Source: an uncultured Erysipelotrichaceae bacterium | Lineage (GTDB): Bacteria; Bacillota_I; Bacilli_A; Erysipelotrichales; Erysipelotrichaceae | Assembly (NCBI GenBank): GCA_942493105.1 | Contig: OW818668.1 | Location: forward strand, 180,001 to 212,000 | DNA length: 32,000 bases | Direction: 5' to 3' | In this document: positions 1,933 to 31,084 of the stretch, one piece after another | Numbering within the stretch: position 1 is the first letter of the stretch | Layout: each line of letters opens with the position of its first letter | The notes under the pieces: model-generated | Database searches by the model: none | The model's input: only the letters and a program-made list of their open reading frames with translations | What the model was told of the DNA's origin: nothing | Position numbers and translations under genes: made by a program

Positions 1933-2588
1933 CAACCTAACCGATACCCATATCCATAAATCGTATGAATATTGAGCGCCTTAAGTTTCTTACGTAGTCT
2001 GCGTAACGTATCGTCAACCACCCGATCAGATCCAAAGTAATTGGTTTCCCACACTCTTTCTAGGATTTGTTCGCGTGAAAATGCGATGGTCTTGTTGCGG
2101 ACAAACATCATGAGTAGATCGAATTCTTTGGTGGTCAATTCAATCTCTGAATCGTGTTCATAGACTTTGCGTTGAACCAAATCGATCTCATAACCATCGA
2201 CTTCGATACGATCGTCGTCTTTATACACACGGCGCATGATGTTGTTGACTCTTAATACAAGTTCTTTGGGTGAAAAAGGCTTGGTGATATAATCATCTGA
2301 TCCTTTTTCTAGACCGATGATACGATCAAACTCTTTATCACGGGCAGACATAAAGATAACAGGAACCGAAGGATTGACTTTACGTATCTCTTCGATCAAA
2401 TCAAAACCGCTTCGATTGTCCAGCATAATGTCCAAAATCCATAAAAGAATATCCGGATTATGCGTCTGCATGCTCGCACTATCATAAGTCAAATGAGATC
2501 TGACTTCATAGCCTTCTTTCTCAAGATAACGTTTTACCAATTCATTGAGATCTTTTTCATCTTCGACGATCGAAATGATGCGTTTCAT
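1932..2588 (-). CDS. OmpR/PhoB-family response regulator
   Basis: Receiver domain with acidic pocket (VEDE, phospho-acceptor in WILDIMLD). C-terminal winged-helix trans_reg_C domain (LTTKEFDLL...IHTIYGYGYRL). Its start codon overlaps the glmM stop by 1 nt (TAATG). Confidence 0.92.
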   Translation of the reverse strand: MKRIISIVEDEKDLNELVKRYLEKEGYEVRSHLTYDSASMQTHNPDILLWILDIMLDNRSGFDLIEEIRKVNPSVPVIFMSARDKEFDRIIGLEKGSDDYITKPFSPKELVLRVNNIMRRVYKDDDRIEVDGYEIDLVQRKVYEHDSEIELTTKEFDLLMMFVRNKTIAFSREQILERVWETNYFGSDRVVDDTLRRLRKKLKALNIHTIYGYGYRLG

Positions 2589-3913: not shown

Positions 3914-3921
3914 GATGCTCC

Positions 3922-5289: not shown

Positions 5290-5290
5290 G

Positions 5291-6304: not shown

Positions 6305-6329
6305 TACAAAACCCTCCTTAGTCTCAAAT

Positions 6330-6358
6330 ATTATAACATAACCGCAATTATGTGATAA
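6330..6358 (-). promoter_or_regulatory. sigma-A type promoter of the cdaA operon
   Basis: Minus strand reads TTATCA, then 17 nt, then TGtTATAAT (extended -10). It lies about 25 nt upstream of the cdaA RBS. Confidence 0.6.
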
Positions 6359-6412
6359 AGGCAACCTTGTGAAATTGTGTGAAGGAAAGCATAAGATTTG
6401 TGTGATACAATA

Positions 6413-7570
6413 ATGGATATGATTAGCACCATTCAACTAGAAGACAAAACAATCACTTTAATCGGTACAGCTCATGTTTCACATCAGTCTGCCCAAGAGG
6501 TTTTAGATGACTTAAGCAATGGATCTTATGATGCAATTGCCATAGAACTTGATGAAGAAAGATTCAAAGGCCTCAATCAAGAAAAAACTTGGAAAGATAC
6601 CGACATCATCAAGATCATCAAACAAAAACAAACAGGATTATTGATGACTCAGCTCATTTTAGCCTCTTATCAGAAACGTTTGGCGAAAGCCAATCAGATC
6701 AATGTCGGACAAGAAATGATCACTGCGATTCAATATGCCCAAGACCATGAGATCCGCTTACTTAAAATCGATCGAAGTGTCACCATTACCTTTCAAAGGA
6801 TCTGGAGATCCTTTAACTTTTTTGACAAAATAAAGCTCTTGACGGAATTGATCTTGTCGGTCTTTTCAACTGAAAAATTCAGTGAGGCTGATTTAGAAAA
6901 GCTGAAAGAACAAGATATGCTTCAAGCTGCTTTGGCTGAAGTGAGTCAGAAGTTTCCTAAGATTGCAGAAACCTTGATCTTTGAACGAGATCGGATCATG
7001 GCCTATAAACTAAGACATGCGTCGGGTTCAAACATCGTTGCGATCGTTGGCGCAGCCCATGTGTCAGGCATCATCAGTCATCTCACTAATGCAGATTTAA
7101 ACATTGATTCCTTAATGAGTGTGCCTCCTGCAGGTAAATTTAACAAGATCATTGCTTATATCTTTCCTTTATCGATCATTGCCTTACTTGTCATCACCAT
7201 GGCCTTAAGTCCTGATTTAGCCCTTAATACCATCTTGAAGTTCATTGTCTTCAATGGCTCATTAGCGGCCCTTGGGACCTTCATTGCCTTTGGTCATCCT
7301 TTAAGTATCTTGACAGCCTTTATCGCTGCACCAATCGGTATCTTATCACCTGTATTGGCAACAGGTTGGTTTGCGGGACTAACCGAAGCAACGATGCGTA
7401 AACCCAAAGTATCGGATTTTATGAATCTTCAGGAAGATGCCATGCATTTAAAAGGCTGGTGGAAAAACAGAGTCTTACGGATCCTGTTGGTGGTGATGAT
7501 GGCCAATATCTTTGCGAGTTTTGGATCGATCGTCACATCGATTGATTTGTTTAAAAATATATTCAATTAA
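6413..7570 (+). CDS. TraB/PrgY-family protein with C-terminal membrane domain
   Basis: N-terminal TLIGTAHVS signature and a second GAAHVSG motif typical of the TraB family. C-terminal third is strongly hydrophobic (4-5 TM). The start is uncertain (ATG 6413 or 6419; the ORF-track TTG at 6398 has no SD). Confidence 0.8.
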   Translation: MDMISTIQLEDKTITLIGTAHVSHQSAQEVLDDLSNGSYDAIAIELDEERFKGLNQEKTWKDTDIIKIIKQKQTGLLMTQLILASYQKRLAKANQINVGQEMITAIQYAQDHEIRLLKIDRSVTITFQRIWRSFNFFDKIKLLTELILSVFSTEKFSEADLEKLKEQDMLQAALAEVSQKFPKIAETLIFERDRIMAYKLRHASGSNIVAIVGAAHVSGIISHLTNADLNIDSLMSVPPAGKFNKIIAYIFPLSIIALLVITMALSPDLALNTILKFIVFNGSLAALGTFIAFGHPLSILTAFIAAPIGILSPVLATGWFAGLTEATMRKPKVSDFMNLQEDAMHLKGWWKNRVLRILLVVMMANIFASFGSIVTSIDLFKNIFN

Positions 7571-16038: not shown

Positions 16039-16065
16039 ATAAAAAAGCACTTCGATTGAAGTGCT
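16039..16065 (-). terminator. rho-independent terminator after E2 gene
   Basis: Minus strand reads AGCACTTC-AATC-GAAGTGCT followed by TTTTTTAT. Confidence 0.85.
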
Positions 16066-16074
16066 CTGAATGAA

Positions 16075-17304
16075 TTAGTCAACTAATAGTGTTAAAGGAT
16101 GTTCAATAAGATAAACTAAATCAGTTAAGAACAAGGCAGCAGGATAACCATCGATTGCTCTATGATCGAAACTGAGGCTCAAGGTCATTTTATTGACTTT
16201 GACTAAATTGTTGTTTGCATCAAATTCAACACGTTGAATCGTTCTGCCTACGCCTAAGATACACACTTCAGGGACATTGATGATCGGATTAAAATCTGTG
16301 ACGGCTGTAGTCCCCAAGGAAGTAATCGTAAAGGTTCCGCCCGTTATATCATCCGGTAACAAAGCATTGTTTTTTGGTTTGGATGTTTGAACTTTGATGG
16401 CTTTCGCTAATTCAACCAAGGATAATGCTTGTGCATTTTTAACATTAGGGACGATAAGTCCGTTGTCTAACGCAACCGCAATCCCAAGATTGACAGAAGG
16501 CAATACATGGATCCCGTCTTCTAGAGCCAAAGCATTCATATTTGGATGCTTCTTTAAGGTTTTAGCAACAAAATAAGCCAGAAGATGTGTTACTGTCAAA
16601 CGAACACCCTGTTCTTTTTCAACTTTATCCAACAATTCAGATCTAAGCTTCAACAAACCATCCACATTGACTTCCGCATTGATCGTAACGGAAGGTACTG
16701 TACTATGACTCTTTGACATTTGATCCGCAATCAATTTACGAATTCCTGTCCATGGGATGATTTTCTCTACGCCTGGTTCAACATAAGTCGATTTTGTGGA
16801 TGATGGGTTAAAATGCAACACATCCTTAAGATGAACTCTATGTAAACCTGGGGTAGATTGGAAAACAGTTTCTATACTGATGCCTTTTTCACGGGCAGCT
16901 TTACGGGCTGCAGGTGTAGCTCTTACTCCAAATCCATCGCTTGGTAAGGCTTGAGCTGAAATCGAGGTAACAGTTTGAGTTGGAGTTTGTGTCGCAACTT
17001 TTGTTTCCACAACAGGTTTCACAGGTGTATCAATTTTTGCAAGTGTTGGAGTCTCAACTTTTTCGCCGGCTTGACCAATGTGGGCAATGACTGAGTTTAC
17101 GGGAACGACTTGTCCAACTTCAATATATCGACCCAAAAGGATTCCAGCATCATAGGCTTCAACTTCAATCGCGATCTTATCGGTCATGACTTCAAAAAGA
17201 ACTTCACCGACTTTGATGGGATCGCCTACTTTTTTAAACCATTCTGTAACATGCCCTTTATCCATCGTTGAGGATAATTTGGGCATCAATACTTCTTTAG
17301 CCAT
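16075..17304 (-). CDS. dihydrolipoamide acyltransferase, E2 component
   Basis: N-terminal lipoyl domain (EVMTDKIAIEVEA, lipoyl-Lys), peripheral subunit-binding domain (RATPAARKAAREKGI) and a catalytic domain ending SFDHRAIDG. AAGGAGG RBS. Confidence 0.93.
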   Translation of the reverse strand: MAKEVLMPKLSSTMDKGHVTEWFKKVGDPIKVGEVLFEVMTDKIAIEVEAYDAGILLGRYIEVGQVVPVNSVIAHIGQAGEKVETPTLAKIDTPVKPVVETKVATQTPTQTVTSISAQALPSDGFGVRATPAARKAAREKGISIETVFQSTPGLHRVHLKDVLHFNPSSTKSTYVEPGVEKIIPWTGIRKLIADQMSKSHSTVPSVTINAEVNVDGLLKLRSELLDKVEKEQGVRLTVTHLLAYFVAKTLKKHPNMNALALEDGIHVLPSVNLGIAVALDNGLIVPNVKNAQALSLVELAKAIKVQTSKPKNNALLPDDITGGTFTITSLGTTAVTDFNPIINVPEVCILGVGRTIQRVEFDANNNLVKVNKMTLSLSFDHRAIDGYPAALFLTDLVYLIEHPLTLLVD

Positions 17305-17316: not shown

Positions 17317-18300
17317 TTATTTCGCTGCCATGATTTTGCGGCAGGCTTCTACGATATCGTTGACTTGAGGAACAGCCAATTTTTCAAGATTGGGTTCATA
17401 GGGAATCGGTGTTTCTGCACCGGCTAAACGTACGATTGGATGATCTAAATAGTCAAAGGATTCTTCCTCTGAAATGACAGCGGCTAATTCTGATGAGAAA
17501 CCACTGCGTTTGACGGCTTCAGTTACAACTAAAGCACGACCTGTCTTCTTAACTGAGTCGACGATGGTTTTCTTATCGAGGGGAACCAAGGTTCTTGGAT
17601 CGACGATTTCAATATCAATGCCTTCTTTAGCTAAGATTTCAGCAGCTTCTAGAGCTTTGTGTACCATATAGGATGTCGCGATGACAGAAATATCTTTGCC
17701 TGCACGTTTGATATCGGCAACGCCGATTGGGATAAAGTACTTACCTTCTGGAACATCCCCTTTGGTTCTGTAGCAAAGTTTATGTTCATAAAACATGACA
17801 GGGTTATTGTTGGCGATGGCACTGTGCAATAAACCTTTCGCATCATAAGCCGTGGATGGTTGAATGACGATCAAGCCAGGAATATGGGCTGTCCAGTTTT
17901 CTAAAGATTGGGAATGTTGTGCAGCTGCACCAGTCCCTGATCCACCAGGTGTTCTCATGACCAAAGGAATCGTCACATTGCCGCCATACATATAGTGTAT
18001 CTTCGCAGCTTGATTGACCATTTGATCCAAAGCGATCGTTATAAAATCTGAAAATTGAAGTTCAAAGACAGGACGCATTCCTGTGATTGCTGATCCTACT
18101 GCAGCACCAGCGATGGCACTTTCAGATATGGGAGTTACTCTGATCCGCTCTGGTCCAAATTCTTCAATCATGCCTCTGGTAACGCCAAATGCTCCACCAT
18201 ATACCCCAATATCTTCACCCATGATAAAGACTCTGTCGTCTTCACGCATGGCTTCGCTAAGGGCTTCTCTTATGGCTTCTGTGTATGTTATTTCTCTCAT
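17317..18300 (-). CDS. 2-oxoacid/acetoin-type dehydrogenase E1 beta subunit
   Basis: [14 protein letters not shown]...GEDIG.YGG.F..T.G....FG.ER...TPISE and GAAAQHSQS motifs of transketolase-like E1 beta. Start moved to the ATG at 18300. The AAGGAG there overlaps the E1 alpha stop. Confidence 0.92.
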
Positions 18301-18310: not shown

Positions 18311-19300
18311 TTAATCCGCGTAAACGTCGACAAACAATTGATCAGCTGTTGGCTTTTCACCAGCTTCTGCGAAAGCAACGGCTGCTTCAATGGCTTCAGC
18401 GGCTTTGGCTTGAATATCATCCGCTTGGGCATCGGTTAAGAGTCCAGCTTCAATCAACTGTTTTCTGAAGTTAGCGATGGGATCGCGTTCTGATCTCCAC
18501 ATTTCTTCTTCTTCACGTGTTCTATATTTCTTAGCGTCGGATTTGGAATGTCCTTTCCAACGATAAGTCTTGGCTTCAATCAAAGTAGGACCTTCACCTT
18601 TTCGTGCACGTTCTACCGCATCATAAGTTGCATTGATGACTTCAATGAGGTTGTTTCCATCAATGGTAATGCTTGGAATTCCATAAGAAACCCCACGAAT
18701 CGAAAGATCTTTGACGTTGACCATTTCTTTGATGGATCCGCTCATTCCATACTGATTATTTTCAATAAAGAAAATAACCGGAAGTTTCCATATGGAAGCC
18801 ATATTGAGGGATTCATGGAAACTGCCTTCATTGGTTGATCCATCTCCCGCATGACACAAACAAACTTGATCTGTTTTCTTCATTTTAGCAGTCAAAGCAG
18901 CTCCAACCGCAATCGGATATCCTCCACCAACGACACCATTAGCACCAAGGTTACCGGTTTCGATTTCCGCTATATGCATGGATCCGCCTTTGCCTTTATT
19001 GGTTCCAGAAGTCTTCCCAAAAAGCTCAGCCATCATTTTATTGATGTCTGTTCCTTTGGCGATGGTTTGACCATGTCCGCGATGGGTGGCTGCCATCCAG
19101 TCGCTTTTTCTTAAGACAGCACCTGATCCAACAGCTGCTGCTTCTTCACCGACACATAAGTGGGTCGTCCCGTGAATCATGCCTTTGGCGAAAAAGTAAT
19201 CTACTTTTTCTTCAAATTGGCGAATGATCCACATCTTACGGAAGGCTTCAATGAGAGCCGCATCATCAAGATGGGCTTTGTTTGGGATTCTTTCTGACAT
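18311..19300 (-). CDS. TPP-dependent 2-oxoacid/acetoin-type dehydrogenase E1 alpha subunit
   Basis: [34 protein letters not shown] and the TPP motif GDGSTNEG...ENNQYG. From memory it is closest to AcoA/PdhA-type E1 alpha. Substrate not assignable. Confidence 0.9.
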
Positions 19301-19311: not shown

Positions 19312-20697
19312 TTAAATGTGTATGGGATAACCGAGACCGGCTTCCGTATTATCCATGATGGCTTCTGAGACAGATGGATGCGGGAAGATGGTCAAGGCGA
19401 TGTCTTCTAAGGTAAGACCAGTTTCAATAGCCAAAGTGATCACAGAGATGATTTCACTGGCATTGACACCTGCGATCTGAGCTCCTAAGATCAGCTTTGT
19501 GTTTTCTTCAGAAATGATTCTTACAAAGCCTTCGGTCTTAGATGCAGCGATGGCTCTTGAATTCGCAGCCAATGGGAAATCTGTCGCAATGGCTTTGATG
19601 TTTAAAGCCAAACATTCTTCCAGAGATTTACCAGTGGTGGCAATTTCAGGGGTCGTATAACAGACTGCAGGCATGGCTTTATAATCAATTTCAACTTTAT
19701 GACCAGAGATGACTTCTGCGACGATTTTAGCTTCATAGGAAGCTTTATGAGCCAACGCAAGACCTAAGGTTATGTCTCCGATCGCATAGACTTTAGGATT
19801 GGTGGTTTTGGATTGTTTATTGACTTTAACGAAGCCTTTAGGATCGAGTTCGATACCAGAGACATTGATGTTGAGCTGATCGGTATTGGGACGTCTACCA
19901 ACGGATACCAATACAACTTCAGATTCAACGATCGTTTCAACATCACCTTTTTTATACGTCAACGCAACACGATCACTCTCTTCTTTTGAAGAAAGCACCA
20001 AGGCATCGGTCAGGATGGTTACTCCTAGTTTCGTTAAATTACGTTTAACCAAATCAGAAAGCTTGGTGTTAAAACCAGGCAAAATACCAGGTGTTGCTTC
20101 AATCAAAGTGACTTTGGTCCCAAAGGCAGCAAAAGCTTCAGCCAATTCGCAACCGATATAGCCTGCCCCAATGACACTTAAGGTTTGAGGTAAAGTGGGA
20201 ATATTTAAGATTCCTGTTGAATCAAGAATACGTTTTGAGAAAGGGGCTGCTTTGATTTCAATGGGACGACTGCCTACGGCTAAGATCGCAGTGTTGAAAC
20301 TATATTCCTCGGATTTACCATCGTTGGTTACAGTAATTGAATTCTTCGAACTGAATTTTGCTTCGCCAAATAAAACTGTGACTTTGTTTTTCTTTAGCAG
20401 TTGAGTTACACCAGATCTTAACTTCTGTACAACTTGGGTGTTTTTCCACACTTGTGTCTTTTCAAAGTCCAAGGTCGCGGTCGCATTGATCCCAAATTTA
20501 GAGGCATGCAACAGCTCTTGATAAGTATGGCCTGCCTGCAGTAAAGCTTTGGATGGAACACACCCTACGTTAAGGCATGTGCCTCCTATGACATTTCTTT
20601 CGATGAGGGTGACTTGTTGACCAAGTTGTGCTGCTCGGATGGCTGCAACATAACCTCCAGGACCAGATCCAATAATGACAGTATCTAATGCGTTCAT
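19312..20697 (-). CDS. lpd: dihydrolipoyl dehydrogenase, E3 component
   Basis: FAD fold GSGPGGY, redox disulfide GGTCLNVGCVPSK, NAD fold GAGYIGCE, C-terminal HPSVSE His-Glu dyad. Start moved to the ATG at 20697 behind GGAGAGGT. Confidence 0.93.
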   Translation of the reverse strand: MNALDTVIIGSGPGGYVAAIRAAQLGQQVTLIERNVIGGTCLNVGCVPSKALLQAGHTYQELLHASKFGINATATLDFEKTQVWKNTQVVQKLRSGVTQLLKKNKVTVLFGEAKFSSKNSITVTNDGKSEEYSFNTAILAVGSRPIEIKAAPFSKRILDSTGILNIPTLPQTLSVIGAGYIGCELAEAFAAFGTKVTLIEATPGILPGFNTKLSDLVKRNLTKLGVTILTDALVLSSKEESDRVALTYKKGDVETIVESEVVLVSVGRRPNTDQLNINVSGIELDPKGFVKVNKQSKTTNPKVYAIGDITLGLALAHKASYEAKIVAEVISGHKVEIDYKAMPAVCYTTPEIATTGKSLEECLALNIKAIATDFPLAANSRAIAASKTEGFVRIISEENTKLILGAQIAGVNASEIISVITLAIETGLTLEDIALTIFPHPSVSEAIMDNTEAGLGYPIHI

Positions 20698-20993
20698 TTT
20701 TACCTCTCCAATGTTTCTTTTCGAGACATGAATATGATTTGTCTTCCAAATCAAAATACTTCTTGAGTATTACTTCCAAGAGTTTATACGGGTGAAACAA
20801 CACATTGAATTCACGATTTCATCTAATAAGCAAAGAAGATAAAACGTCCAATGGATGCCTCTTAACGATTTCATCTTGAATGATTTGAATCAAGTCGTGA
20901 TGGTCCATTCAATTCGCTGCGGACATCGTCATTATTCCCGCAAACTCTACACACTAATCTTACAAGGTTATTGAACCATTTGGCTATAAGTGA

Positions 20994-21025
20994 AGTCAAA
21001 CTGCTTTCCACATTAATGTGGTAAA
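20994..21025 (-). promoter_or_regulatory. operator palindrome plus -35 element upstream of the E3-E1-E2 operon
   Basis: Minus strand reads TTTACCACA-TTAA-TGTGGAAA-GCAGT-TTGACT, followed after 18 nt by TTCAAT. The same module with the same spacing occurs at 29332..29363. Confidence 0.6.
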
Positions 21026-21062: not shown

Positions 21063-21704
21063 CTATTTCTTCTGTCCATAATTGTTGAATACGGCTACCG
21101 CATCAGCAATTTGATCATCAGACAGTTGCGCTATATGAGGCGACATAGATCGTGCAATCGTGTATGTTTTCGCAGCTTCTTCTAGATAAACACAGGCATA
21201 AAGTGCTTGACTTATGTCTTTTCCTACAGCGATGACCCCATGGTTTTTTAAAATGATGGCGAGTTTATCATCAAGATACTCAACAGCTTGTATACCCATA
21301 TCTAAGCTGGCAGCAGATGCATATTTGGTAACCAAAACATTACCTCTTGTTGCATTGGCCAAGGTGGTCAAACAACAAGGCAAATGATCTTCAACCAAAC
21401 CAACTGCAGTAGCATAAGGTTGATGGGTATGGATGATGGCGTTGATGTCTGGACGATGTTTAAAGATATAGAGTAAAGCTTGTGTATCGACAGACACTCG
21501 TCTTGTGCCTTCTATGACCTTGCCTTCAATATCTAACACGATGATGTCATCCTCAACCATGATTTCATACATCATGCCAGAAGGCGTGACCAATATCTTA
21601 TCTTCAAATCGGACACTGACGTTACCGCCTGATAGTGAGATCAGGTGATAACGATCCATTAAAATGCCCGTCTTGATGATTTGACGTTTGAGTTCTTCTA
21701 ACAT
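21063..21704 (-). CDS. class II aldolase/adducin-family protein (FucA/AraD/OtnC-like)
   Basis: The 213-aa protein is collinear with FucA (GNVSVR, TP.G..YE, RPD.NA.IHTH, NHG.IA.G). It carries the AraD/UlaF-like metal ligand context SVDT instead of the FucA SSE. Start moved to the ATG at 21704, overlapping the cyclase stop (TAATG). Confidence 0.8.
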   Translation of the reverse strand: MLEELKRQIIKTGILMDRYHLISLSGGNVSVRFEDKILVTPSGMMYEIMVEDDIIVLDIEGKVIEGTRRVSVDTQALLYIFKHRPDINAIIHTHQPYATAVGLVEDHLPCCLTTLANATRGNVLVTKYASAASLDMGIQAVEYLDDKLAIILKNHGVIAVGKDISQALYACVYLEEAAKTYTIARSMSPHIAQLSDDQIADAVAVFNNYGQKK

Positions 21705-22513
21705 TACACAATGGCCAATGGGACAACCGGGGTTCCTGTTGCACCTACAAATTTCATAGGATAACACATCAAAGTAAACACATAAACCTTATCTTTAGCC
21801 AATTCATCCAACTTCATATTTTCAATCATCGTGATCCCATCTACCACAAATAAATAGATATGAGCCCAATGAGTCGATCCGGTTTTTGGATCGAGTTCTT
21901 CAGGGATATCCCAAGAGAGCTGATCGACTCCAAATACGATGGGTTTGAATGTTCTGACCCAAGCACTGGCTTCACCATTAATACCTGCATATTTTAGAAA
22001 TTCTTTATTGTCATGCCACAAAGTATCATAGCCTGTTCGAACGATGATCGCATCACCTTCTTGGATGGTCACATTTTGAGCTTTCGCTGTTTCAATTAAA
22101 TCTTGAGCTGTGATGGCATAACGATTGGGCAGAACTGAAACACCTTTATAGGCAGCCACATCCAACATAACAGCACGTGCCATGATGGGCTCTAGTTCTT
22201 CTGCACCGTGGCTTGTGAAGCCTTTAGGGGTCTCAATAAGGTTGGTGACTTTAACATCACCATGCATGGTCAAATCAAGCGCCTGATGACATAGTGCATC
22301 CATGTGTGTCCCAGAATGATCATTCATGATGAAGAAACCATTAGCAGTAGAACGGGGACCTTTTGAATCAGGGAAGTATCCAGCCACATGACCTCTTGAG
22401 ATAAAGTAGTCATAATGAGGACGATGATGAGGATAAACCGGCATACCAATATAACGAGGCTGTTCAAGATTATAAATTTTTCTCTTCTTCAATTCATTTA
22501 GAAATAGTTCCAT
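21704..22513 (-). CDS. putative-cyclase family metal-dependent hydrolase (kynurenine formamidase-like fold)
   Basis: HSGTHMDALCH matches the HxGTHxDxPxH zinc motif of the putative-cyclase family (Pfam PF04199 from memory). AAGGAG RBS. Confidence 0.75.
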   Translation of the reverse strand: MELFLNELKKRKIYNLEQPRYIGMPVYPHHRPHYDYFISRGHVAGYFPDSKGPRSTANGFFIMNDHSGTHMDALCHQALDLTMHGDVKVTNLIETPKGFTSHGAEELEPIMARAVMLDVAAYKGVSVLPNRYAITAQDLIETAKAQNVTIQEGDAIIVRTGYDTLWHDNKEFLKYAGINGEASAWVRTFKPIVFGVDQLSWDIPEELDPKTGSTHWAHIYLFVVDGITMIENMKLDELAKDKVYVFTLMCYPMKFVGATGTPVVPLAIV

Positions 22514-22531
22514 ATTTTTCTCCTTGTTTGA

Positions 22532-23179
22532 TCAATCTTTAAACGATGCATCTATTCTTTGTTTGAAAGCACGGGCGACCGCAACTGGATCTTTGGCTTC
22601 ATACAATGAACGCCCAACGATAAACGAGAATATTTCTAGACCACCAAACATATCAATATCTTCAGGTCTTAGTCCACCTGTCACACTGACATGAAAACCA
22701 ATCTCTATCAAGGCTTTGATTTTATCGATATCAGTTTGAGTCCATGCTTGTGATGCATCTCTGGAGTGATGATAAATGATATGTGTCACCCCTGTTTTAA
22801 ACCATGCTTTGGCTAAATCAAAATCCCATCTTCCATATAACTCGATTTGAATGTTTTGATTGTTCTTCTGTGCCAACTTACCTGCAATTTCCATAGTAGC
22901 CAAATCAGCCGCAGCAATGACAGTGATCAAGTTGGCTCCAGCATCAAACAACATCCCACCGATCGTATTGACTGCATCAGCAATTTTAAAATCAGCCACC
23001 AACATTTTATGAGGATATGTTTCTCTTAGTCTGCGAGGTGCTGATGCCCCTTCTGCAGCTAAAAGAACTGTTCCTGCTTCAATGATATCTACTTCATCGA
23101 CAAGATTATTTAAACTTAAGATATTCTGTGCTTCTTGTATACTGACGACATCTAACGCAATCTGCAATTTCGGTTTCAT
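22532..23179 (-). CDS. ulaD: 3-keto-L-gulonate-6-phosphate decarboxylase-like (OMP decarboxylase suprafamily)
   Basis: Collinear with E. coli UlaD: LQIALD, VDIIEAGT, YPHK.LVADFKIADA, IQIELYG.W, IYHHSRDA, VTGGL..EDI, FIVGRS. Closer to UlaD than to hexulose-phosphate synthase by my recollection. AAAGGAG RBS. Confidence 0.8.
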   Translation of the reverse strand: MKPKLQIALDVVSIQEAQNILSLNNLVDEVDIIEAGTVLLAAEGASAPRRLRETYPHKMLVADFKIADAVNTIGGMLFDAGANLITVIAAADLATMEIAGKLAQKNNQNIQIELYGRWDFDLAKAWFKTGVTHIIYHHSRDASQAWTQTDIDKIKALIEIGFHVSVTGGLRPEDIDMFGGLEIFSFIVGRSLYEAKDPVAVARAFKQRIDASFKD

Positions 23180-23513
23180 TTATTCTCCTTTTTTTGATGG
23201 TCATCTCTGCCAAATTAAATCAAATGTAATATCTCTTATAAAATCTTCTCATCTTTCTTAAATTCATCGGTTGATTCTAGTGAACATTTTTTAAAATCAC
23301 TTACTTATTTAAAAAAATCTCGCCTTTCAACCAACAGTTTTCAGTTATGCTCATATAAGCTAATTTTTAATGAACATTTGTGGTAAAAATGCCTTAAATT
23401 ATTCACTAAGTTGTTCCTTATTTCTCAATTGTATCATACCTAAACCTGTTGAGATACTCATGTAATGTCTAGTCATAAAGTGTTCATTTAATATGGTCCA
23501 TGTTCATAAGTTG

Positions 23514-23556: not shown

Positions 23557-24279
23557 TTATTGGGTATGAGCAGGAATCCCACTCTTATGCAAGATCTGGA
23601 TCATGTTTTCTTTGACATCCGCAACTGAAATGGTTCTATGAGTCAATGCACTGATGGTTTCCATGGATTGTAGATCGATAAGTGGATATTTGGGATCTTT
23701 TAAAGGATTAGCTAAGTCATAGAAGCTTTTGATCAGTGCACAACGTTTCTGTTGATTTCCGCTGACACATATCGTTATCATCAGCATTACCGCCTCTTTG
23801 CTTCGATATTGTGCCATTCCCGCAAACTTCTTTCCATTGACAGATAGATCATATTTTCCTGGGCAATAGGAATTTATAATTTCACCTTCTTGGATGTCTA
23901 GATGATAATCATGAAGTAAATGATGCAACAGTTGAACTCCAAAATCATAGGATTCATTCAACCCTCCAATCAACGGACACTCTTTAGAAAACAGAATACT
24001 TAGGTTTAATATCCCTTGATCACATACCACAGCTAAACCGCCTGCTTTACGTACAGAAGTTTTATATCCGCTATTTTGAAGGCTTTTGAGTCCCTTTTCA
24101 AACTCAGGTAACAGTGTATCCATCTTACCTAGAATAACACCCTGGGTGCTCCAAAAACGCACAATCAAGGTCTGTGGATTCAAGGTGTTGGCTAAGGTTT
24201 TATCAGTAAGAAGTTGGTTTTCTAAATCGACGTGTTGATCAATGATCGTCACACTTTTGAAATGTTGGTAAAGGTTCAT
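23557..24279 (-). CDS. LplA/LipM/LipL-family lipoyl/octanoyl transferase (catalytic domain only)
   Basis: RKAGGLAVVCDQGILNLS and SYCPGKYDLSVNGKKFAGMAQYR (Cys plus Lys motif of the octanoyl/lipoyl transferase clade). 240 aa, with no C-terminal LplA accessory domain. No convincing SD. Confidence 0.75.
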   Translation of the reverse strand: MNLYQHFKSVTIIDQHVDLENQLLTDKTLANTLNPQTLIVRFWSTQGVILGKMDTLLPEFEKGLKSLQNSGYKTSVRKAGGLAVVCDQGILNLSILFSKECPLIGGLNESYDFGVQLLHHLLHDYHLDIQEGEIINSYCPGKYDLSVNGKKFAGMAQYRSKEAVMLMITICVSGNQQKRCALIKSFYDLANPLKDPKYPLIDLQSMETISALTHRTISVADVKENMIQILHKSGIPAHTQ

Positions 24280-24315: not shown

Positions 24316-24345
24316 AATAAAAAGGCTGTCTCGGAAGACAGCCTT
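24316..24345 (-). terminator. rho-independent terminator ending the PTS operon
   Basis: Minus strand reads AAGGCTGTCT-TCCG-AGACAGCCTT followed by TTTTATT. Confidence 0.88.
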
Positions 24346-24348: not shown

Positions 24349-24843
24349 TTATTTTGTTTTGATGAATGAGCGTTGTTTAAAGTTTTTCATCATCGGATGC
24401 TTGAGTTCAACCAAACTTTCAAGGAAAGCCTGAAGCTCTAAACCTTGACCAAACTGTTCGATTTGAAGCCAATATCTGCCTTTGGTTAAGCCTGCACCAT
24501 TGATCCGAACATAGATGCTTTTTGAGAAAGCAGTCTTGCGGATATTGATGCGTTGGATCTCTTCAAAGGTGTAATGATGATGCCTTCCAAAACAAGAGAA
24601 TTCAATGGATTGATCTGTGGTCTTGACTTTTTCAGGATGAGACAAAGACAGGTAATGATCCAGAAAGATGATCAAGGCCAAAACGGCGATGGGCACACTA
24701 TAGGATGTTGCCTTATTTGTCAAAACTTCAAAGATCATGATCAGAAAGACCAAAGCAGACAGAATCGTAGGGACATAGATCCCAAACATCGATTTCTGAG
24801 TGGTGTATTGATAGACTTTGTTCAAGTTGTCCTCTTTCAGCAT
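24349..24843 (-). CDS. small membrane protein: TM hairpin plus about 95-aa cytoplasmic domain, unknown function
   Basis: Two hydrophobic helices (IYVPTILSALVFLIMIF, VPIAVLALIIFL) then a soluble beta-rich domain. The architecture resembles bacterial PH-domain (YdbS-like) proteins, but that is only an architectural guess. Weak RBS; ATG at 24843. Confidence 0.55.
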   Translation of the reverse strand: MLKEDNLNKVYQYTTQKSMFGIYVPTILSALVFLIMIFEVLTNKATSYSVPIAVLALIIFLDHYLSLSHPEKVKTTDQSIEFSCFGRHHHYTFEEIQRINIRKTAFSKSIYVRINGAGLTKGRYWLQIEQFGQGLELQAFLESLVELKHPMMKNFKQRSFIKTK

Positions 24844-24858
24844 CAATCACATATTGGA

Positions 24859-26208
24859 TTAAGCTTGTTTAGCAATACGTTTGAAGTTGATGAAAGCCAT
24901 GACGCCAGTGATGGCAGTCAAGATGCCTAAACCAATCCATCTGAAGTTCATGAGTTGAACGAAAGCCCAGCTCAATGGTGAAGCTCCATCAGCAATACTT
25001 GAAATCAGGTCAGCACCTACAGGCAAGGTGAAGTTAGCAGCAACAGCAGCTTCGGTCAATAACGGAGCAATACCAGTTGCGATCCACAAGCCAGTAACAA
25101 CGATGAAGATACCAACAACTAAAGTTCTGAATAAATCGCCTTTAGTAATAGGAACAACCAAGACAAACAAGAAAGGCAATACCGCTAAGTCAGCAAACGG
25201 CAAGAACTGATTGCCTGGCAAAATAGCAGCGATCAAGACGGATAACGGAACAAGGATCAAAGAAACAGCCAAGGTTGTCGGATGACCGATACCTACAGCA
25301 GCATCCAAACCGATATAGATCTTGGTGTTGGATTTGAAATGTTTTTCAACGAATTCAGAAGCAGCATCAGAAATAGGAATCAAACCTTCCATGAGTAATC
25401 CAGCCATCTTAGGAATAAGAACCAAAGCAGCACCCATGGTGATACCCAAGGATAAGAAGCCTTTCAAATCGTAACCAGCTAAGACACCGATAATGGCACC
25501 TAAGACTGTTCCGACCAAGATCGGTTCGCCAAAGATTCCAAATTTCTTCTGAACAGCAACAGCATCCATATTGATTTTGTTGATGCCTGGGATATAATCC
25601 AAGATTTTATTGATGACTAAAGCCACAGGAACAAACGCTACTGATAATCCGTGAGGAATAGAAACGCCTGGTAAACCACAGTATTCTTCAACGCCTTTAG
25701 CAGTCCAGTCAGCCAAGATCAATGTCATGGCAGCTTGAATTGCAGCTGTTGCTAAACCAAAGACCAAGTCATTGGTAGCAAAATAAACCAAAGAACCTGT
25801 GAATGCATAATGCCAGAAGTTCCAAACGTCAATATTGACTGTTTGAGTCGTTTTGGTCAAGATCATAACAAAGTTGACAGCTAATGCAACAGGAATAACC
25901 AAAGCCCCTACATTGGTCGCAAACGCGATGGCTGCAGCTGCAGGCCACCCAACATCAATAACAGTTAAGCTTAAGCCATAATTCGTAACCATTTGTTGAA
26001 CGGCTGGGCCTAAGTTTCCACCCAACATCCCAATAACCAAATTCAAACCAATGAAACCAACGCCAACCGTTAGACCGGCTCTAATGGCCTTGCCTGGTTT
26101 TGCGCCCATGATCAAACCGATAAGGGTAATAACGATCGGCATCATGACTGATGAACCTAAGCCTACGACAAAGTTTATGCCATCCATAATGACTTTAAAA
26201 ATGTCCAC
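24859..26208 (-). CDS. PTS EIIC, L-ascorbate (UlaA/SgaT) family
   Basis: A 449-aa polytopic membrane protein whose size and glycine-rich hydrophobic pattern fit SgaT/UlaA permeases. It sits immediately after the cognate IIA and IIB genes. Confidence 0.85.
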   Translation of the reverse strand: MDIFKVIMDGINFVVGLGSSVMMPIVITLIGLIMGAKPGKAIRAGLTVGVGFIGLNLVIGMLGGNLGPAVQQMVTNYGLSLTVIDVGWPAAAAIAFATNVGALVIPVALAVNFVMILTKTTQTVNIDVWNFWHYAFTGSLVYFATNDLVFGLATAAIQAAMTLILADWTAKGVEEYCGLPGVSIPHGLSVAFVPVALVINKILDYIPGINKINMDAVAVQKKFGIFGEPILVGTVLGAIIGVLAGYDLKGFLSLGITMGAALVLIPKMAGLLMEGLIPISDAASEFVEKHFKSNTKIYIGLDAAVGIGHPTTLAVSLILVPLSVLIAAILPGNQFLPFADLAVLPFLFVLVVPITKGDLFRTLVVGIFIVVTGLWIATGIAPLLTEAAVAANFTLPVGADLISSIADGASPLSWAFVQLMNFRWIGLGILTAITGVMAFINFKRIAKQA

Positions 26209-26237: not shown

Positions 26238-26531
26238 CTACTTAAGACCTAATGACTCGAGTATATCTTGTAAAACTGGTTCAGTACCCCGACCTATAAG
26301 AAAAGCCACACCCATAATTACTTTGACCGGCATCGGTTTGCTGTTATGCGCCGTTGTGACGATCAAATCATATTTTGAAGCCTTAGACTCCATCTCTGCA
26401 ACTGTACAGGTTGATACTTCTACCAAATCACCAAAGCCTCTCTCTTTAAAGATATTTTCTAGCTTTTTAGCGACGGCAACGGATGTAGCAACGCCTGTAC
26501 CACAAGCAACCAGTACTCTTTTCTTAATCAT
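26238..26531 (-). CDS. PTS EIIB, ascorbate/lactose-type (UlaB-like)
   Basis: MIKKRVLVACGTGVATS carries the active-site Cys in a P-loop-like context. 97 aa. Start moved to the ATG at 26531 behind AAAGGAGGGTG. Confidence 0.88.
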   Translation of the reverse strand: MIKKRVLVACGTGVATSVAVAKKLENIFKERGFGDLVEVSTCTVAEMESKASKYDLIVTTAHNSKPMPVKVIMGVAFLIGRGTEPVLQDILESLGLK

Positions 26532-26550: not shown

Positions 26551-27012
26551 TCAAGCAATTTGAGCACTCATCAGCGCATAGAGCGCCTCAGGAGTGGCTG
26601 CTTCCTTAATTTGGGTCAGCAAGCTTTCGTTTTGGATCATATCCATCAAACTTTGCAAGACTGACATATGCGAATGCGATTCTTTTAAGGCCAACATAAA
26701 CATGACTTCAACGTCGATCAGTTCATCATGATTGCCCATCATACGAAACTGAACCGGATTTTTTAAAGTTGCGACAGCCAAGACCGACGTGTTGACGTAG
26801 CAAGGATCCGCATGTGGAATCGCTACCCCTCGGCCAAATCCTGGCAAACCTGTTGAGAATTCTGCTTCTCGATCAAGAATCGCCTGAATGAAAGTATCCT
26901 TTACATAGCCTTCTGCTTTTAACTTTTCAGCTAAGATCACTAAGGCTTCATCCGCGTTTTGAGCTTCAATATTCAATAAGATAACTTTTGAATTGAATAG
27001 AGATGCGCTCAT
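26551..27012 (-). CDS. PTS EIIA, mannitol/fructose/Ntr-type (UlaC-like)
   Basis: 153 aa with GVAIPHADP phospho-His motif. ATGA overlap with the upstream mini-gene. Confidence 0.88.
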   Translation of the reverse strand: MSASLFNSKVILLNIEAQNADEALVILAEKLKAEGYVKDTFIQAILDREAEFSTGLPGFGRGVAIPHADPCYVNTSVLAVATLKNPVQFRMMGNHDELIDVEVMFMLALKESHSHMSVLQSLMDMIQNESLLTQIKEAATPEALYALMSAQIA

Positions 27013-27206
27013 TTGGATGCTTCTTCCGCAACGATCAGTGTTGCCTTAAATTCACTGGGTGTAAAAGATATGGATTGGTTTTCCGCAAGTCTGCGTAAAC
27101 CAGTTCCTGTAATGTCTGCCATTTTAAACGTATATTCTTTGTGGTCTTCGCCGACAATCACGCCAGCACCTTTAACCAAACTATAGAATTTCACGATGCC
27201 CTTCAT
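27009..27206 (-). CDS. 65-aa cold-shock-domain-like OB-fold protein with degenerate RNP motifs
   Basis: Collinear with CspB (GIVKFY..VKGAGVIV......EYTFKMADI.G.G...L.ENQSISF). RNP1 KGFGFI is KGAGVI and RNP2 VFVHF is YTFKM. Good RBS (GAGAGG). The stop overlaps the EIIA start (ATGA). Confidence 0.65.
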   Translation of the reverse strand: MKGIVKFYSLVKGAGVIVGEDHKEYTFKMADITGTGLRRLAENQSISFTPSEFKATLIVAEEASK

Positions 27207-27260: not shown

Positions 27261-29213
27261 TTAACTGCTTAATAAAACTTCACTGATGGCTTGTGCCACT
27301 TCTTCTTTATCCTTCATTGAACAGATTCGATTCCATAGGGCTAAGTCATCACTGTGATCGGCCAAATGACTGAAGAATGGGATCGTATCAGATGCATCTT
27401 CTTTGGTTGAGACTACGTTGAGGATCATTTTGACCTCAACATCTTTTTCCCAAAGGACGGGATGTGTCAGGATGACCACTTGGATACAACTTCTTAAGAC
27501 ATAAGCGAAGTCACCATGAGGAATCGCAATCATCGATGAGATGACAGTAGGTCCCAAAGCTTCTCTCTCAAGCATGCTTTCCAGATAACCTTCAGTAACG
27601 AGTTTACGTTTACTTAAAGTCTGATTTAAGAAATATAAGACATCTTCTTTGGTTTTCAGATCGACATTTAAGTGGATATCGTCTTTGGTGATCGCAGCTT
27701 TAGTAGGTGCAAATGTTTTCTTGCCTTCTACGATTTCTCGGATGGCATTCATATCGTACTGTGGTAGTAAAGGATTGATGATGATCGTTTTGATCTTCGA
27801 TTGAATGGCCACCGTTGAGATGATCAGATCGATCTTTGATTCATCGTAACTATCAACGTCCATCGTAGAGGTCACATCGACGATCTCAAGGTTATTGAAA
27901 GCGCGTTTTAGTTTCGCCACAATGAGTTGAGATGTTCCTAATCCGCTGGCACACATAACTAAGGTCCGGATCGGTTTGATATTGCGTTCTCTGGCTGCTG
28001 CAAAGTGTAAGACCAGATAAGCAATTTCATTGGGTGGCATTTCAATGTGGAACATAGATTTAAACAAAGATACATGGTTGGCTATGGCTTGATAGATCGT
28101 AGGATAGGAGAATTTAATCTCTTCAAACATTGGATTCTCTAGAGATAGCCCATAAAGCAGGCGGTTAATGGTGGGTTTAAGATGTAGGATCAAACTATTG
28201 AACAGTTGCGTATCTGTTTCTAGAAACAGATTGAGTTCCATTTGAACATTCTGGATGAATTTTAAGATGAGATCTTCTAGGACAGGTGTATCTGATGAGA
28301 GCTTGAAGTTAAAGACATTAAGACCTTCTTTAATACGTTTGGCTCCCATAAAATGAAGCAAGATATAATAGGTTTCTGTTTCAGATAAAACAACATTGAA
28401 GACAGAGTTGATGCGTTGAGCGGTTTCTAAGGCAATGGCGTATTCTTCTTGATGGTCTAGGGCTTGAATCAATTCGTCGGTCAAACGAATGTTGTTGCCT
28501 TGTTTTGTACGTCTTATCGCAATTGCGATGTGGATGATCAAGTTGATCCTGGCTTCCATAGAGAAGGAATAGCCTAACTTGATTTCTGATTCCGCTACGA
28601 TCTCTTCGACTTTCTTATAATCCAGTTGAAGTGACTCTTCAAAACGATTGACGAAGGAATGAGAACGGCGATCTGTGTTGTCTTGGTTGTAGTAAACAAG
28701 ATTCTTGTTTTCTTCAAAGGGGACAAGCTTAGCCATTGCTTTACGCTTATTGCTTTCTTCCCCAACAATCACAGTGCCTTCACCTTTTAAATATTCAATG
28801 ACTAAGTTGAAGTCTGCTAACATCGCATTGAGTTCACTGATGTCTTTGGTGATCGTAGAACGGCTGACATAATAGTCTAAACCCAGTTCTTTGATCATAA
28901 GCGGTCGGTTTTCCGCAAACAATTTCGATAAGATCGAACGTTGTCTTTCTTGAGGGGTTAAATAACTGGTATCTCTGCGAGTTTTAAAGGTAGATAGCAA
29001 TTGTTGTTTATCACTGGGATCCCCTTCAATGGTGATACCTTGACCCGGTTTTTTGATCATGACCAAATGATGATCTTGAAGGATGGGTTCTATCAGATCT
29101 AATTCATTGCGAACTGTCTTGGGTGAACTGTTGACTGCTTTGGCGATCAAGTCAACACTGACCAGATTCTTTTCACTCAGGATGAATTTAACGATATCTT
29201 CTTTTCTGTTCAT
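27261..29213 (-). CDS. PRD-domain transcriptional regulator of the MtlR/LicR/ManR class (HTH-HTH-PRD-PRD-EIIB-like-EIIA-like)
   Basis: N-terminal winged-HTH pair, two PRD-like helical regions with conserved His (LILHL, LVLHFAAA), an EIIB(Gat)-like LVMCASGLGTSQ and an EIIA-like AIPHGDF. Start moved to the ATG at 29213 behind GAGGAG. Confidence 0.88.
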   Translation of the reverse strand: MNRKEDIVKFILSEKNLVSVDLIAKAVNSSPKTVRNELDLIEPILQDHHLVMIKKPGQGITIEGDPSDKQQLLSTFKTRRDTSYLTPQERQRSILSKLFAENRPLMIKELGLDYYVSRSTITKDISELNAMLADFNLVIEYLKGEGTVIVGEESNKRKAMAKLVPFEENKNLVYYNQDNTDRRSHSFVNRFEESLQLDYKKVEEIVAESEIKLGYSFSMEARINLIIHIAIAIRRTKQGNNIRLTDELIQALDHQEEYAIALETAQRINSVFNVVLSETETYYILLHFMGAKRIKEGLNVFNFKLSSDTPVLEDLILKFIQNVQMELNLFLETDTQLFNSLILHLKPTINRLLYGLSLENPMFEEIKFSYPTIYQAIANHVSLFKSMFHIEMPPNEIAYLVLHFAAARERNIKPIRTLVMCASGLGTSQLIVAKLKRAFNNLEIVDVTSTMDVDSYDESKIDLIISTVAIQSKIKTIIINPLLPQYDMNAIREIVEGKKTFAPTKAAITKDDIHLNVDLKTKEDVLYFLNQTLSKRKLVTEGYLESMLEREALGPTVISSMIAIPHGDFAYVLRSCIQVVILTHPVLWEKDVEVKMILNVVSTKEDASDTIPFFSHLADHSDDLALWNRICSMKDKEEVAQAISEVLLSS

Positions 29214-29331
29214 AGGCTCCTCTTGTTTGTTAAACTCAAGCAATCTTTGCCAATGCACACGATGCGTTATTTCGTGCAATTCTACCTCACAATCATTCTA
29301 TAATGAACATTTGTGATTAGATGGTGTGACA

Positions 29332-29363
29332 AGTCAAGTTTATTTCCACATCATTGTGGTAAA
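29332..29363 (-). promoter_or_regulatory. operator palindrome plus -35 element upstream of the PRD regulator/PTS operon
   Basis: Minus strand reads TTTACCACA-ATGA-TGTGGAAA-TAAAC-TTGACT. It is identical in both half-sites, the 5-bp gap length and the TTGACT to the module at 20994..21025. Confidence 0.6.
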
Positions 29364-29508: not shown

Positions 29509-29527
29509 AGTCTAGCAATGAACCATG

Positions 29528-29605
29528 AATGAAAAGGCAAACTATCCGAAAGGATAGGACGCAAAGCTAGAGGGCCTTCCTTAAGGATGGCAGCCAGTTT
29601 CCAAG
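29528..29605 (+). promoter_or_regulatory. c-di-GMP-I (GEMM-I) riboswitch aptamer
   Basis: AAAGGCAAAC-UAUCC-GAAA-GGAUA-GGACGCAAAGC-UAGAGGGCCUUCCUUAAGGAUGGCAGCC. It has the conserved GGCAAAC, a P2 hairpin with GAAA tetraloop, the GGACGCAAAGC junction, and a P3 hairpin with a CCUUAAGG/GAUGG receptor-like internal motif. Compare the Vc2 core GGCAAACCAUUCGAAAGAGUGGGACGCAAAGCC. Confidence 0.8.
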
Positions 29606-29692: not shown

Positions 29693-31084
29693 ATGCGAAA
29701 GCATCACATGAAGAAAATTATGTTGGGAAGTCTAGGAGCCATTTTAATCTTATCTTTATTGTTTCAACCTGTCATGGCGATGACTGGCAACGACTTTGAC
29801 TTGATGACCACGATTACATCATTATTTACGAGAGTCAATTCACAGGATGAAAAGATTGCTGTTCTTGAAAACAAGATTGAAGAACTAAAGGATCTTTTGG
29901 ATGCTAAAAAGAATCCTCCAGAAATCATCCCCAAGGAAGAGCCTAGGGATACAGTCATTGAAACTGATCCACCTAAAGAAGAAGAAAAGGTTGAGGAAGA
30001 AAAACCAGTCGATCCAAAACCTGATCCAGAGTTAACGTTGAAGTTAACCATTAAAACAGGTGATGCTGGCTTGAAACTGACGTGGACAAAGGAAACTGAT
30101 GAAAATCTTCGTGGAGTCAAGATCGTTATTTCAGAGTCTAATCCTAAACCATCTTATCCTGATGATGGCTATCTAGCTTGGATTACTGACCCAAATGTTA
30201 CCTCACTATTGATTGATGGTTCAGAAACCTATAATGGTGGGGATATCGATGGGTCACTTAAGAGCGATACTACTTATTACTTTACAGTTACTTATGTCTA
30301 TGAAGATAAAAAAATAACGACCTCTACTGTCACCTACAAGACCCCCTCCTTCCTCACTCAAGATGACGAAGAATTGCCTGTTGATCCTGAGTCATTGGCA
30401 CTAACCATCATAACTTTAGATGATTCTTTGCAGTTGAGTTGGACACCTGAACCAAGTAAATCTCTTTTAGGGTATAAGGTTGTCATCTCTGAATCCAATC
30501 CTAACCCTTCTTATCCTAATGATGGTTATTTAAAATGGATCACTGATCGTGCTCAGACCTCACTCACTATTGATAACGCAGAATCCTATAATGGCGGAGA
30601 TATCAATGGGACACTTAAAGGGGATACGATCTATTACTTTACCATTACCTATGTCTATGCGGATGAAAAAGTAACGACCTCAACTGTAACCTTTAAGACA
30701 CCATCTTCCTTCTCTCAAGATGAAGAAGAACAGCCAATAGATCCTGAATCCTTGGAGTTGATTTATAAAATTTGGGATAATACTGTTCAATTGAGTTGGA
30801 CACCTGAACCCAGTAAATCTCTGTTAGGGTATAAAGTTGTCATATCTGAATCCAATCCTAACCCTTCTTATCCAGACGATGGTTATCTTAGATGGATCAC
30901 CAACTGGGAAGAAAATTCAATAATTATCGATAACTCCGAATCCTACAATGGAGGCGACATCAACAGTTACCTCAAACCTAATACCAATTACTATCTAGCC
31001 ATCACCTATATTTATCAAGACCACAAGGTTACTACTGACCCAATTGTGGTGCTAACGCCCGCAACTTTACATACAAACCGATAG
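29693..31084 (+). CDS. secreted protein: signal peptide, coiled coil, Pro/Glu/Lys linker and three 119-aa repeats
   Basis: Signal peptide ending PVMA, a heptad-like DEKIAVLENKIEELKDLLD, a PEIIPKEEP...EEEKPVDPKPDPE linker, then three copies of L.W........GYKVVISESNP.PSYP.DGYL.WI......ID..E.YNGGDI.G.LK.DT.YYF.ITYVY.D.KVTT. AAAGGAG lies 6 nt before the ATG. No LPXTG or C-terminal anchor seen. Confidence 0.85.
   Translation: MRKHHMKKIMLGSLGAILILSLLFQPVMAMTGNDFDLMTTITSLFTRVNSQDEKIAVLENKIEELKDLLDAKKNPPEIIPKEEPRDTVIETDPPKEEEKVEEEKPVDPKPDPELTLKLTIKTGDAGLKLTWTKETDENLRGVKIVISESNPKPSYPDDGYLAWITDPNVTSLLIDGSETYNGGDIDGSLKSDTTYYFTVTYVYEDKKITTSTVTYKTPSFLTQDDEELPVDPESLALTIITLDDSLQLSWTPEPSKSLLGYKVVISESNPNPSYPNDGYLKWITDRAQTSLTIDNAESYNGGDINGTLKGDTIYYFTITYVYADEKVTTSTVTFKTPSSFSQDEEEQPIDPESLELIYKIWDNTVQLSWTPEPSKSLLGYKVVISESNPNPSYPDDGYLRWITNWEENSIIIDNSESYNGGDINSYLKPNTNYYLAITYIYQDHKVTTDPIVVLTPATLHTNR
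30008..31081 (+). repeat. three tandem 357-nt coding repeats inside the secreted protein gene
   Basis: Units start near 30008, 30380 and 30737. Units 2 and 3 share near-identical DNA over the first 100 nt or so (TTGAGTTGGACACCTGAACC.AGTAAATCTCT.TTAGGGTATAA.GTTGTCAT.TCTGAATCCAATCCTAACCCTTCTTATCC). Confidence 0.85.

Follow-up and report, generated by a model that had tools for sequence, protein, structure and literature searches.

The window, that is, the whole 32,000-nucleotide stretch of DNA from an uncultured Erysipelotrichaceae bacterium that we analysed, carries two operons on its minus strand: one for a lipoamide-dependent dehydrogenase complex, and one for a galactitol-family PTS together with a regulator. 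A gene for lipoyl transfer and a module of three further genes lie between them. The genes, the E3 leader and the terminators are as follows.

16044-16067, minus strand: terminator-like hairpin closing the E3-E1-E2 operon.
16075-17304, minus strand: E2 acyltransferase with lipoyl, E3-binding and catalytic domains (domain search).
17317-18300, minus strand: E1 beta, 327 aa, true start at 18300 (profile matches).
18311-19300, minus strand: E1 alpha, TPP-dependent, mitochondrial/acetoin 'y' type (profile and structure matches).
19312-20697, minus strand: E3, dihydrolipoyl dehydrogenase (TIGR01350, 508 bits, above the cut-off), true ATG at 20697, placed by alignment with the orthologous locus L001.
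20698-20950, minus strand: E3 leader, about 250 nt, degenerate remnant of a gene for a SorC-type (Sugar-bind) regulator, recognized by blastn and tblastn comparison with the intact L094 sorC.
21063-23179, minus strand: genes for an OMP-decarboxylase-family (UlaD-like) protein, a cyclase-family protein (PF04199) and a class II aldolase/epimerase (domain search).
23557-24279, minus strand: LipL/LipM-like lipoyl/octanoyl amidotransferase (lipL), which always adjoins the E3 operon in relatives.
24322-24345, minus strand: terminator of the PTS operon.
24349-24846, minus strand: small conserved membrane protein, encoded by the last gene of the PTS operon and kept in relatives.
24859-26208, minus strand: PTS EIIC, galactitol family (GatC-like; domain search).
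26238-26531, minus strand: PTS EIIB (domain search).
26551-27012, minus strand: PTS EIIA (domain search).
27009-27206, minus strand: 65-aa ORF overlapping the EIIA start, with weak cold-shock-domain similarity (E 5e-4, below the cut-off).
27261-29213, minus strand: PRD-containing activator of the MtlR/ManR/LicR class by domain order, true ATG at 29213.

Elsewhere in the window, an operon of cdaA (DAC domain), a YbbR-domain gene (cdaR) and a glmM-like phosphoglucosamine mutase gene is found on the minus strand (2588-6436), and a two-component system at 577-2588. A c-di-GMP-I riboswitch (29526-29605, plus strand; 70 bits, E 5e-12), divergent from the regulator promoter, precedes the gene for a 463-aa secreted repeat protein (29693-31084).

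The regulator has the domains of a PTS-controlled activator. HTH_11/Mga (residues 104-184) is followed by two PRDs, PTS_IIB (440-515) and PTS_EIIA_2 (530-667). With LicT as the alignment reference, the PRD histidines align at 4/4 positions (LIIHIAIA, YILLHFMGA, LILHLKP, YLVLHF), and an EIIB-type Cys in VMCASGLGTS and an EIIA His in IAIPHGD can be read off the translation. By its predicted domains and phosphorylatable residues, the protein belongs to the MtlR/ManR/LicR class. In the window and the orthologous operons compared, the regulator gene is always trailed by EIIA, EIIB and EIIC-GAT genes. The small ORF ahead of EIIA, 64-65 aa long, keeps the same position in the operons of L081-L084, L096 and L097, and is not present in that of the 46% regulator orthologue (L099).

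The dehydrogenase operon encodes a full part list: E1 alpha and beta (TPP), a three-domain E2 and the flavoprotein E3. E1 beta scores over the PDH subfamily cut-off (391 vs 321); E1 alpha scores slightly under the 'y-type' PDH cut-off (370 vs 394) and has mitochondrial PDH E1 alpha as its nearest solved structure; E2 scores well under every equivalog cut-off. These matches fit a complex of the pyruvate/acetoin type, an assignment that leaves the substrate unfixed. In a distant genome (L098, 13354-14651), lipoylation genes cluster with the complex: downstream of the E2 gene come a second LplA-B_cat gene and one for a radical-SAM (LipA-like) protein. A search of the 250-nt E3 leader for known RNAs and riboswitches gave no credible match, the sole hit (a snoRNA model, E = 6) being noise.

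Near-identical composite sites precede the two operons, as a sequence-only reading of the window had claimed. On the minus strand, site A (21025-20994), upstream of E3, reads TTTACCACATTAATGTGGAAAGCAGTTTGACT, and site B (29363-29332), upstream of the regulator gene, reads TTTACCACAATGATGTGGAAATAAACTTGACT. Their layouts, TTTACCACA-TTAA-TGTGGAAA-GCAGT-TTGACT and TTTACCACA-ATGA-TGTGGAAA-TAAAC-TTGACT respectively, are identical at 23/23 specified positions. The same reading had judged chance recurrence of such a composite very unlikely, and our scans agree. With up to 3 mismatches allowed over the whole window, the 32-nt composite gave just two matches, sites A and B, and dinucleotide-preserving shuffles gave matches in 0/100 cases (chance expectation, 0). 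A relaxed scan with the 17 dyad positions alone (up to 3 mismatches) again found sites A and B and nothing else in the window. The elements of the two sites and of the promoters predicted below them are listed here.

20957-20962, minus strand: predicted -10 of site A, TAAGAT, 31 nt past TTGACT and 42 nt past the dyad.
20980-20985, minus strand: putative weak -35 of site A, AGCCAA, 17 nt upstream of the -10, placed by anchored alignment.
20994-20999, minus strand: TTGACT of site A, 5 nt past the dyad; both site families keep it as [TC]TGAC.
21005-21025, minus strand: site A dyad, candidate operator of the PRD activator 5' of the E3 operon (sequence and conservation in relatives).
29295-29300, minus strand: predicted -10 of the regulator/PTS operon, TAGAAT, 31 nt past TTGACT of site B.
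29332-29337, minus strand: TTGACT of site B, predicted extended operator element (conservation across sites).
29343-29363, minus strand: site B dyad, candidate autoregulatory site 5' of the regulator gene (identical dyad in orthologues).

The half-sites are arranged as CCACA-N4-TGTGG, which is opposite to the TGTGA-N-TCACA order of Rex or CRP/FNR operators. Interpretations of the dyad as a Rex, CRP or cre site were dropped, because either the half-site order or the consensus is wrong.

The promoter does not sit where TTGACT alone would place it. The sequence-only reading had taken this hexamer for a -35. At none of 15 sites (the window's two and 13 orthologous ones) is there a conserved -10 at the downstream spacing of 16-18 nt that a -35 would require, and a consensus promoter scan of the window did not report a TTGACT-based promoter. 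At 15/15 sites, the predicted -10, TA[AG][AG]AT, instead lies 31-32 nt past TTGAC and 42-43 nt past the dyad, which would put the dyad centre near -64, with transcription starts predicted near 20950 (site A) and near 29288 (site B). Weak -35 candidates lie 17-18 nt 5' of the -10: TGGTCA/GGTCA at most E3 sites and CATCAT/CATCTA at most regulator sites. The window's own candidate at site A, AGCCAA, is very poor, the weakest of the aligned set. In both site families TTGAC stands exactly 5 nt from the dyad, and it is lost in regulator orthologues of 51% and 46% identity. The element TTGACT/TTGAC thus probably belongs to an extended operator, and not to a -35, as judged from this spacing.

Two observations concern the leaders. 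The regulator leader at 29245-29294 (minus strand), GGTAGAATTGCACGAAA(A)ACAACGCATCGTGTGCATYGGCAA, is almost invariant among orthologues and folds no better than shuffles; it holds a second TAGAAT, and may contain a second promoter or a protein site. A hairpin shared by the two leaders (TGCGG..CCGCA vs TGCAC..GTGCA) looked covarying at first sight. It was rejected, since its stability is not beyond that of shuffles (z +0.6 to +2.6), and the copy at site A coincides with where the sorC coding sequence used to begin.

The regulator's own site is conserved without exception among close orthologues. All organisms compared are uncultured MAGs. Regulator orthologues of 77-94% identity were found in 11 loci, the window included, of which eight are distinct (L001, L081, L082, L084, L088, L093, L096 and the window; over the stretch compared, L083, L089 and L092 are the same as L082). 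The dyad TTTACCACA-N4-TGTGGAAA stands upstream of the regulator's own gene with 0 mismatches in 8/8 of these, whereas the spacer, the 5-nt gap and the 31 nt between TTGACT and the -10 differ between loci. In more distant regulator orthologues, the site reads TTTTCCACA-TTGT-TGTGGAAA, 42 nt from TAAAAT (51% identity), and TTTGCAACA-TTGA-TGTGGAAA (46% identity). Some close relatives have the PTS operon with neither lipL nor E3 adjoining.

Six E3 or sorC-E3 operons, with flanks that are no longer alike, carry the dyad upstream with 0-2 mismatches (L001, L090, L093, L094, L095 and L096). A metagenome-wide scan for the composite returned six loci; a match in L091 was discarded as chance, as it falls inside an unrelated ORF. 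In L090, whose E3 is 88% identical, the order is lipL, dyad module, E3-E1alpha-E1beta. L093 and L096 have regulator, PTS, membrane protein, lipL, module (1 mismatch) and E3-E1-E2. In L094 and L095 (E1 alpha 89% and 87% identical, respectively), gutM, EIIC(Gut), EIIBC(Gut) and lipL precede the module (1-2 mismatches), which is followed by a SorC-type gene and E3-E1-E2; these two loci tell the most, as their operon adjoins another PTS, one of the glucitol type. L094 lies on one 456-kb contig with L081, a regulator-PTS operon, and about 124 kb separate the two dyads. Unlinked operons thus keep the operator link as well. At the E3 site of L090 (2990-3060, minus strand), the distance from TTGAC to the -35-like hexamer TGGTCA is longer by about 10 nt, or one helical turn, which offers two alternative -10 choices, TAAAAT or TAAAGA.

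The two site families have only the dyad, TTGAC and the -10 spacing in common. Their conserved upstream flanks differ (GTTTGYT at E3 sites vs GTTCGAWA at regulator sites), which indicates selection on the common elements. This pattern is the one expected of two old copies of one binding site, each apparently maintained separately. A distant genome, L098, has a gut-lipL-sorC-E3 operon without such a dyad; with the dyad lacking before sorC-E3 in the L098/L099 lineage, where the regulator is 46% identical, the wiring is clade-specific.

The sequence-only reading had proposed comparative genomics as a check, and the dyad does co-occur with the gene pair in relatives, before the six E3 operons and 8/8 regulator orthologues, with the unlinked arrangement among them. 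Its central claim, that E3-E1-E2 is induced with the sugar PTS by one factor, is well supported at the level of sequence by dyad conservation before both operons. To judge from the genomes compared, the dyad is a real, conserved, predicted operator with an unusual target for a known class of regulator. Very probably, the E3-E1-E2 operon belongs to the regulon of the factor controlling the PTS operon, and the two operons are probably switched on together.

The operator wiring is, as these comparisons suggest, older than the present gene order. The E3 leader aligns with the sorC of L094 over 57 nt at 86% (E 2e-15; HPYKLLE..LKK.FDLED). It retains the start region of the gene, an N-terminal piece (QDEI...) and the 3' end, which abuts the E3 ribosome-binding site; a large internal deletion has removed about 230 codons. 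The SorC-type gene is intact in L094, L095 and L098. An AT-rich, terminator-like hairpin in the leader (about 20760-20790) was considered as an attenuator and rejected as former sorC coding sequence. The order gut-lipL-sorC-E3 is common to distant lineages (L094/L095 and L098) and is thus probably ancestral. In the window's lineage, the block appears to have been relocated beside the PTS operon of the regulator, with decay of the SorC-type gene to what is now the E3 leader. The nitroreductase and subtilase genes on the flanks are consistent with the block's present place there.

The trio at 21063-23179 is a conserved three-gene module that is found elsewhere without E3 or the PTS of this locus (L002, L085, L086 and L087). 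In the window it has been inserted between lipL and site A, the E3 promoter, and has its own conserved, dyad-free promoter-like block near 23440-23470. Across Erysipelotrichaceae the trio occurs in varied contexts, one of them with a SorC regulator, EIIC-GAT, a split transketolase and HAD phosphatases. In the 97%-related MAG (L001, 10808-11650), the aldolase gene is missing and the cyclase gene is directly followed by site A; the E3 gene there has a frameshift or deletion near 11620, which could be real decay or an assembly error. The sequence-only reading had called the trio an 'ulaD-like operon'. The L-ascorbate (ula) operon comprises the UlaG lactonase, UlaD, UlaE and UlaF together with a SgaT-type PTS; UlaG and UlaE have no counterpart here, where a cyclase-family protein occurs in their place and the EIIC resembles GatC, so that the ula label does not hold. 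The UlaD-like protein scores 246 against a cut-off of 250, and the class II aldolase/epimerase 177 against 251. The cyclase may stand in for the lactonase.

A degenerate half-copy of the operator had also been proposed upstream of these genes, at 23367-23387, and it did not hold up. Only the left half-site is present (TTTACCACA-aatg-TTCATTAA); the element fails the 3-mismatch scan, its stretch is missing from L001, and no -10 lies at the operator distance. As a third site it was also rejected for its position downstream of the promoter-like block of the UlaD-like gene. The surrounding sequence (23360-23395, minus strand), TTTTTACCACAAATGTTCATTA, looks like a site B promoter from which the part between two CACA repeats has been deleted. 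Its left half-site is fused to AATGTTCATTA, which precedes the -10 of site B, and it is found in the window only. The element may be a rearrangement scar.

We think it likely that sites A and B are operators of the PRD activator at 27261-29213, an MtlR/ManR/LicR-class protein, and that the dehydrogenase is induced with the transporter. What the DNA itself shows is the two sites, how they are conserved and spaced, and which domains the regulator has; from these we infer binding, activation, the inducer and the transcription starts along the following lines. By analogy with MtlR, the presence of the PTS substrate and the resulting phosphoryl flow through the PTS would leave the regulator active. 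The active regulator, as a dimer, would bind the 8-4-8 pseudo-palindrome, with the adjacent TTGAC as an extra contact. At the dyad it could then recruit RNA polymerase to a weak sigma-A promoter, one with a poor -35 and a -10 at 42 nt past the dyad. Site B would drive the genes for the regulator, the 65-aa ORF, EIIA, EIIB, EIIC and the membrane protein, and site A would drive E3-E1alpha-E1beta-E2, which would make the dehydrogenase complex co-induced with the transporter.

The dyad might have another binder. Where a SorC-type gene lies directly 3' of it, in L094 and L095, a SorC-type protein is an alternative candidate, since this position is typical of autoregulation; the window's E3 leader is itself what is left of such a gene. 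The dyad would then be functional and bound by a SorC-type protein or by an unlinked factor, and co-regulation would stay, without PTS-dependent phosphorylation of the neighbouring regulator. However, the dyad is kept before the PRD regulator gene in every orthologous locus, and its CACA-N4-TGTG box (8-4-8) and distance to the promoter match those of MtlR boxes. Furthermore, it persists in the window, L093 and L096, which have lost the SorC-type gene, and it is absent from L098, where the sorC-E3 operon is intact. These last two observations disfavour a SorC-type or other binder, which we consider unlikely; control by the PRD activator is the reading that we prefer.

Site A might also be an inherited idle copy, with E3-E1-E2 expressed mainly by read-through from the dyad-free promoter 5' of the UlaD-like gene. 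No terminator was found between the aldolase gene, which stops at 21063, and the dyad, so read-through from an upstream promoter could also express E3. The window has the weakest -35 candidate of the set, and the adjacent SorC-type gene has already decayed. Nevertheless, the dyad, TTGAC, the spacing and the -10 are intact in both the window and L001, amid diverged or deleted surroundings, and an unselected 32-nt element would not hold 23/23 positions. An idle site A is less probable still. Lastly, it is hardly credible that the two copies simply stem from a promoter fragment duplicated locally and recently, with no regulation in common: the two regions do align loosely over about 120 nt, but each copy has orthologues with their own distinct flanks in several lineages, the unlinked arrangement included, so that the copies must be old and separately maintained.

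The sequence-only reading had suggested that the substrate of the complex comes from the PTS sugar; this may or may not be so, as the sequence is that of an ordinary complex of the pyruvate/acetoin type. One suggestion, which we regard as doubtful, is that lipL-E3-E1-E2 encodes a dedicated enzyme of a carbohydrate pathway (e.g., for oxidative cleavage of a sugar-derived 2-oxo acid or of an acetoin-like ketose phosphate) and not a housekeeping pyruvate dehydrogenase. Such a role would account for its repeated association with PTSs of two families (galactitol-type and glucitol-type) and for its control by sugar-responsive regulators, a PRD activator and a SorC-type protein. It would also account for the decarboxylase-cyclase-aldolase module that has been inserted, in this genome, between lipL and the promoter of the complex. 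The wiring is accounted for no less well if pyruvate oxidation is co-induced with a particular carbon source.

PRD-containing activators are known for governing the uptake of a single sugar and the initial steps of its breakdown. If our interpretation is true, a direct, conserved operator before a lipoamide-dependent dehydrogenase would extend a PRD regulon into central or acyl-CoA metabolism. As far as sequence can tell, the switch is of an ordinary kind and its target is unusual. A literature search returned nothing relevant on a PRD activator controlling a pdh or aco operon, or on this cluster in Erysipelotrichaceae, although this does not prove absence. The related genomes would also give the order of events: an operator link with the operons far apart, after which the target moves beside the regulator and loses its SorC-type regulator. 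Sites A and B form a clean, testable pair. Practical value is modest, since none of the organisms is in culture.

Several known systems resemble parts of this locus. ManR and LicR of B. subtilis are PRD activators with EIIB-Gat/EIIA-Mtl-like domains and autoregulated PTS operons, and the regulator described here is in their class; their regulons are not known to reach beyond uptake of the sugar and the enzymes that begin its catabolism. Among E3-first Firmicute operons are pdhDABC of Streptococcus mutans and enterococcal bkdDABC, and acoABCL has a neighbouring lipoate ligase gene. The window shares with these the order E3-E1alpha-E1beta-E2, a heterotetrameric E1 and an adjacent lipoyl-attachment gene. 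We know of no PRD activator among the regulators of the pdhDABC, bkdDABC and acoABCL operons (e.g., sigma-54/AcoR serves B. subtilis aco). Repressors of the SorC/CggR/DeoR 'Sugar-bind' type are encoded first in catabolic or glycolytic operons, and a gene of this type also opens the E3 operon in L094, L095 and L098; unlike these arrangements, the window has a non-coding relic.

The closest parallel is the mannitol regulator MtlR. The present system differs from it in its half-sites (ACCACA/TGTGGA vs GTCACA/TGTGCC), in its cognate PTS, which is of the galactitol family and co-transcribed with the regulator, in its second target, a 2-oxoacid dehydrogenase complex and not a sugar-phosphate dehydrogenase, and in that no cre site is evident at the -10. 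Like B. subtilis MtlR, the regulator has an equal domain order, and the 8-4-8 operator TTnnCACA-N4-TGTGnnAA is that of the MtlR boxes of B. subtilis, Geobacillus stearothermophilus and B. licheniformis. MtlR binds such a pseudo-palindromic box in EMSA (PMC10992428). PmtlA of B. subtilis reads TTGTCACA-GTCA-TGTGCCAA, then 18 nt, a -35 TTGTAT, 17 nt and a -10 TAACAT; the mtlA transcription start was located by primer extension, and the palindrome is needed for activity (PMC3217849). The dyad here likewise lies 18 nt upstream of a weak -35, and its predicted distance to the -10 is 42 nt, vs 41 nt in PmtlA. The conserved flanks of PmtlA run toward the -35 (PMC3217849), and conserved sequence also runs from the dyad toward the -35 in the sites described here. 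MtlR autoinduction proceeds via a similar operator at PmtlR (PMC3217849), and a second operator stands, by sequence, before the regulator's own gene in this system too.
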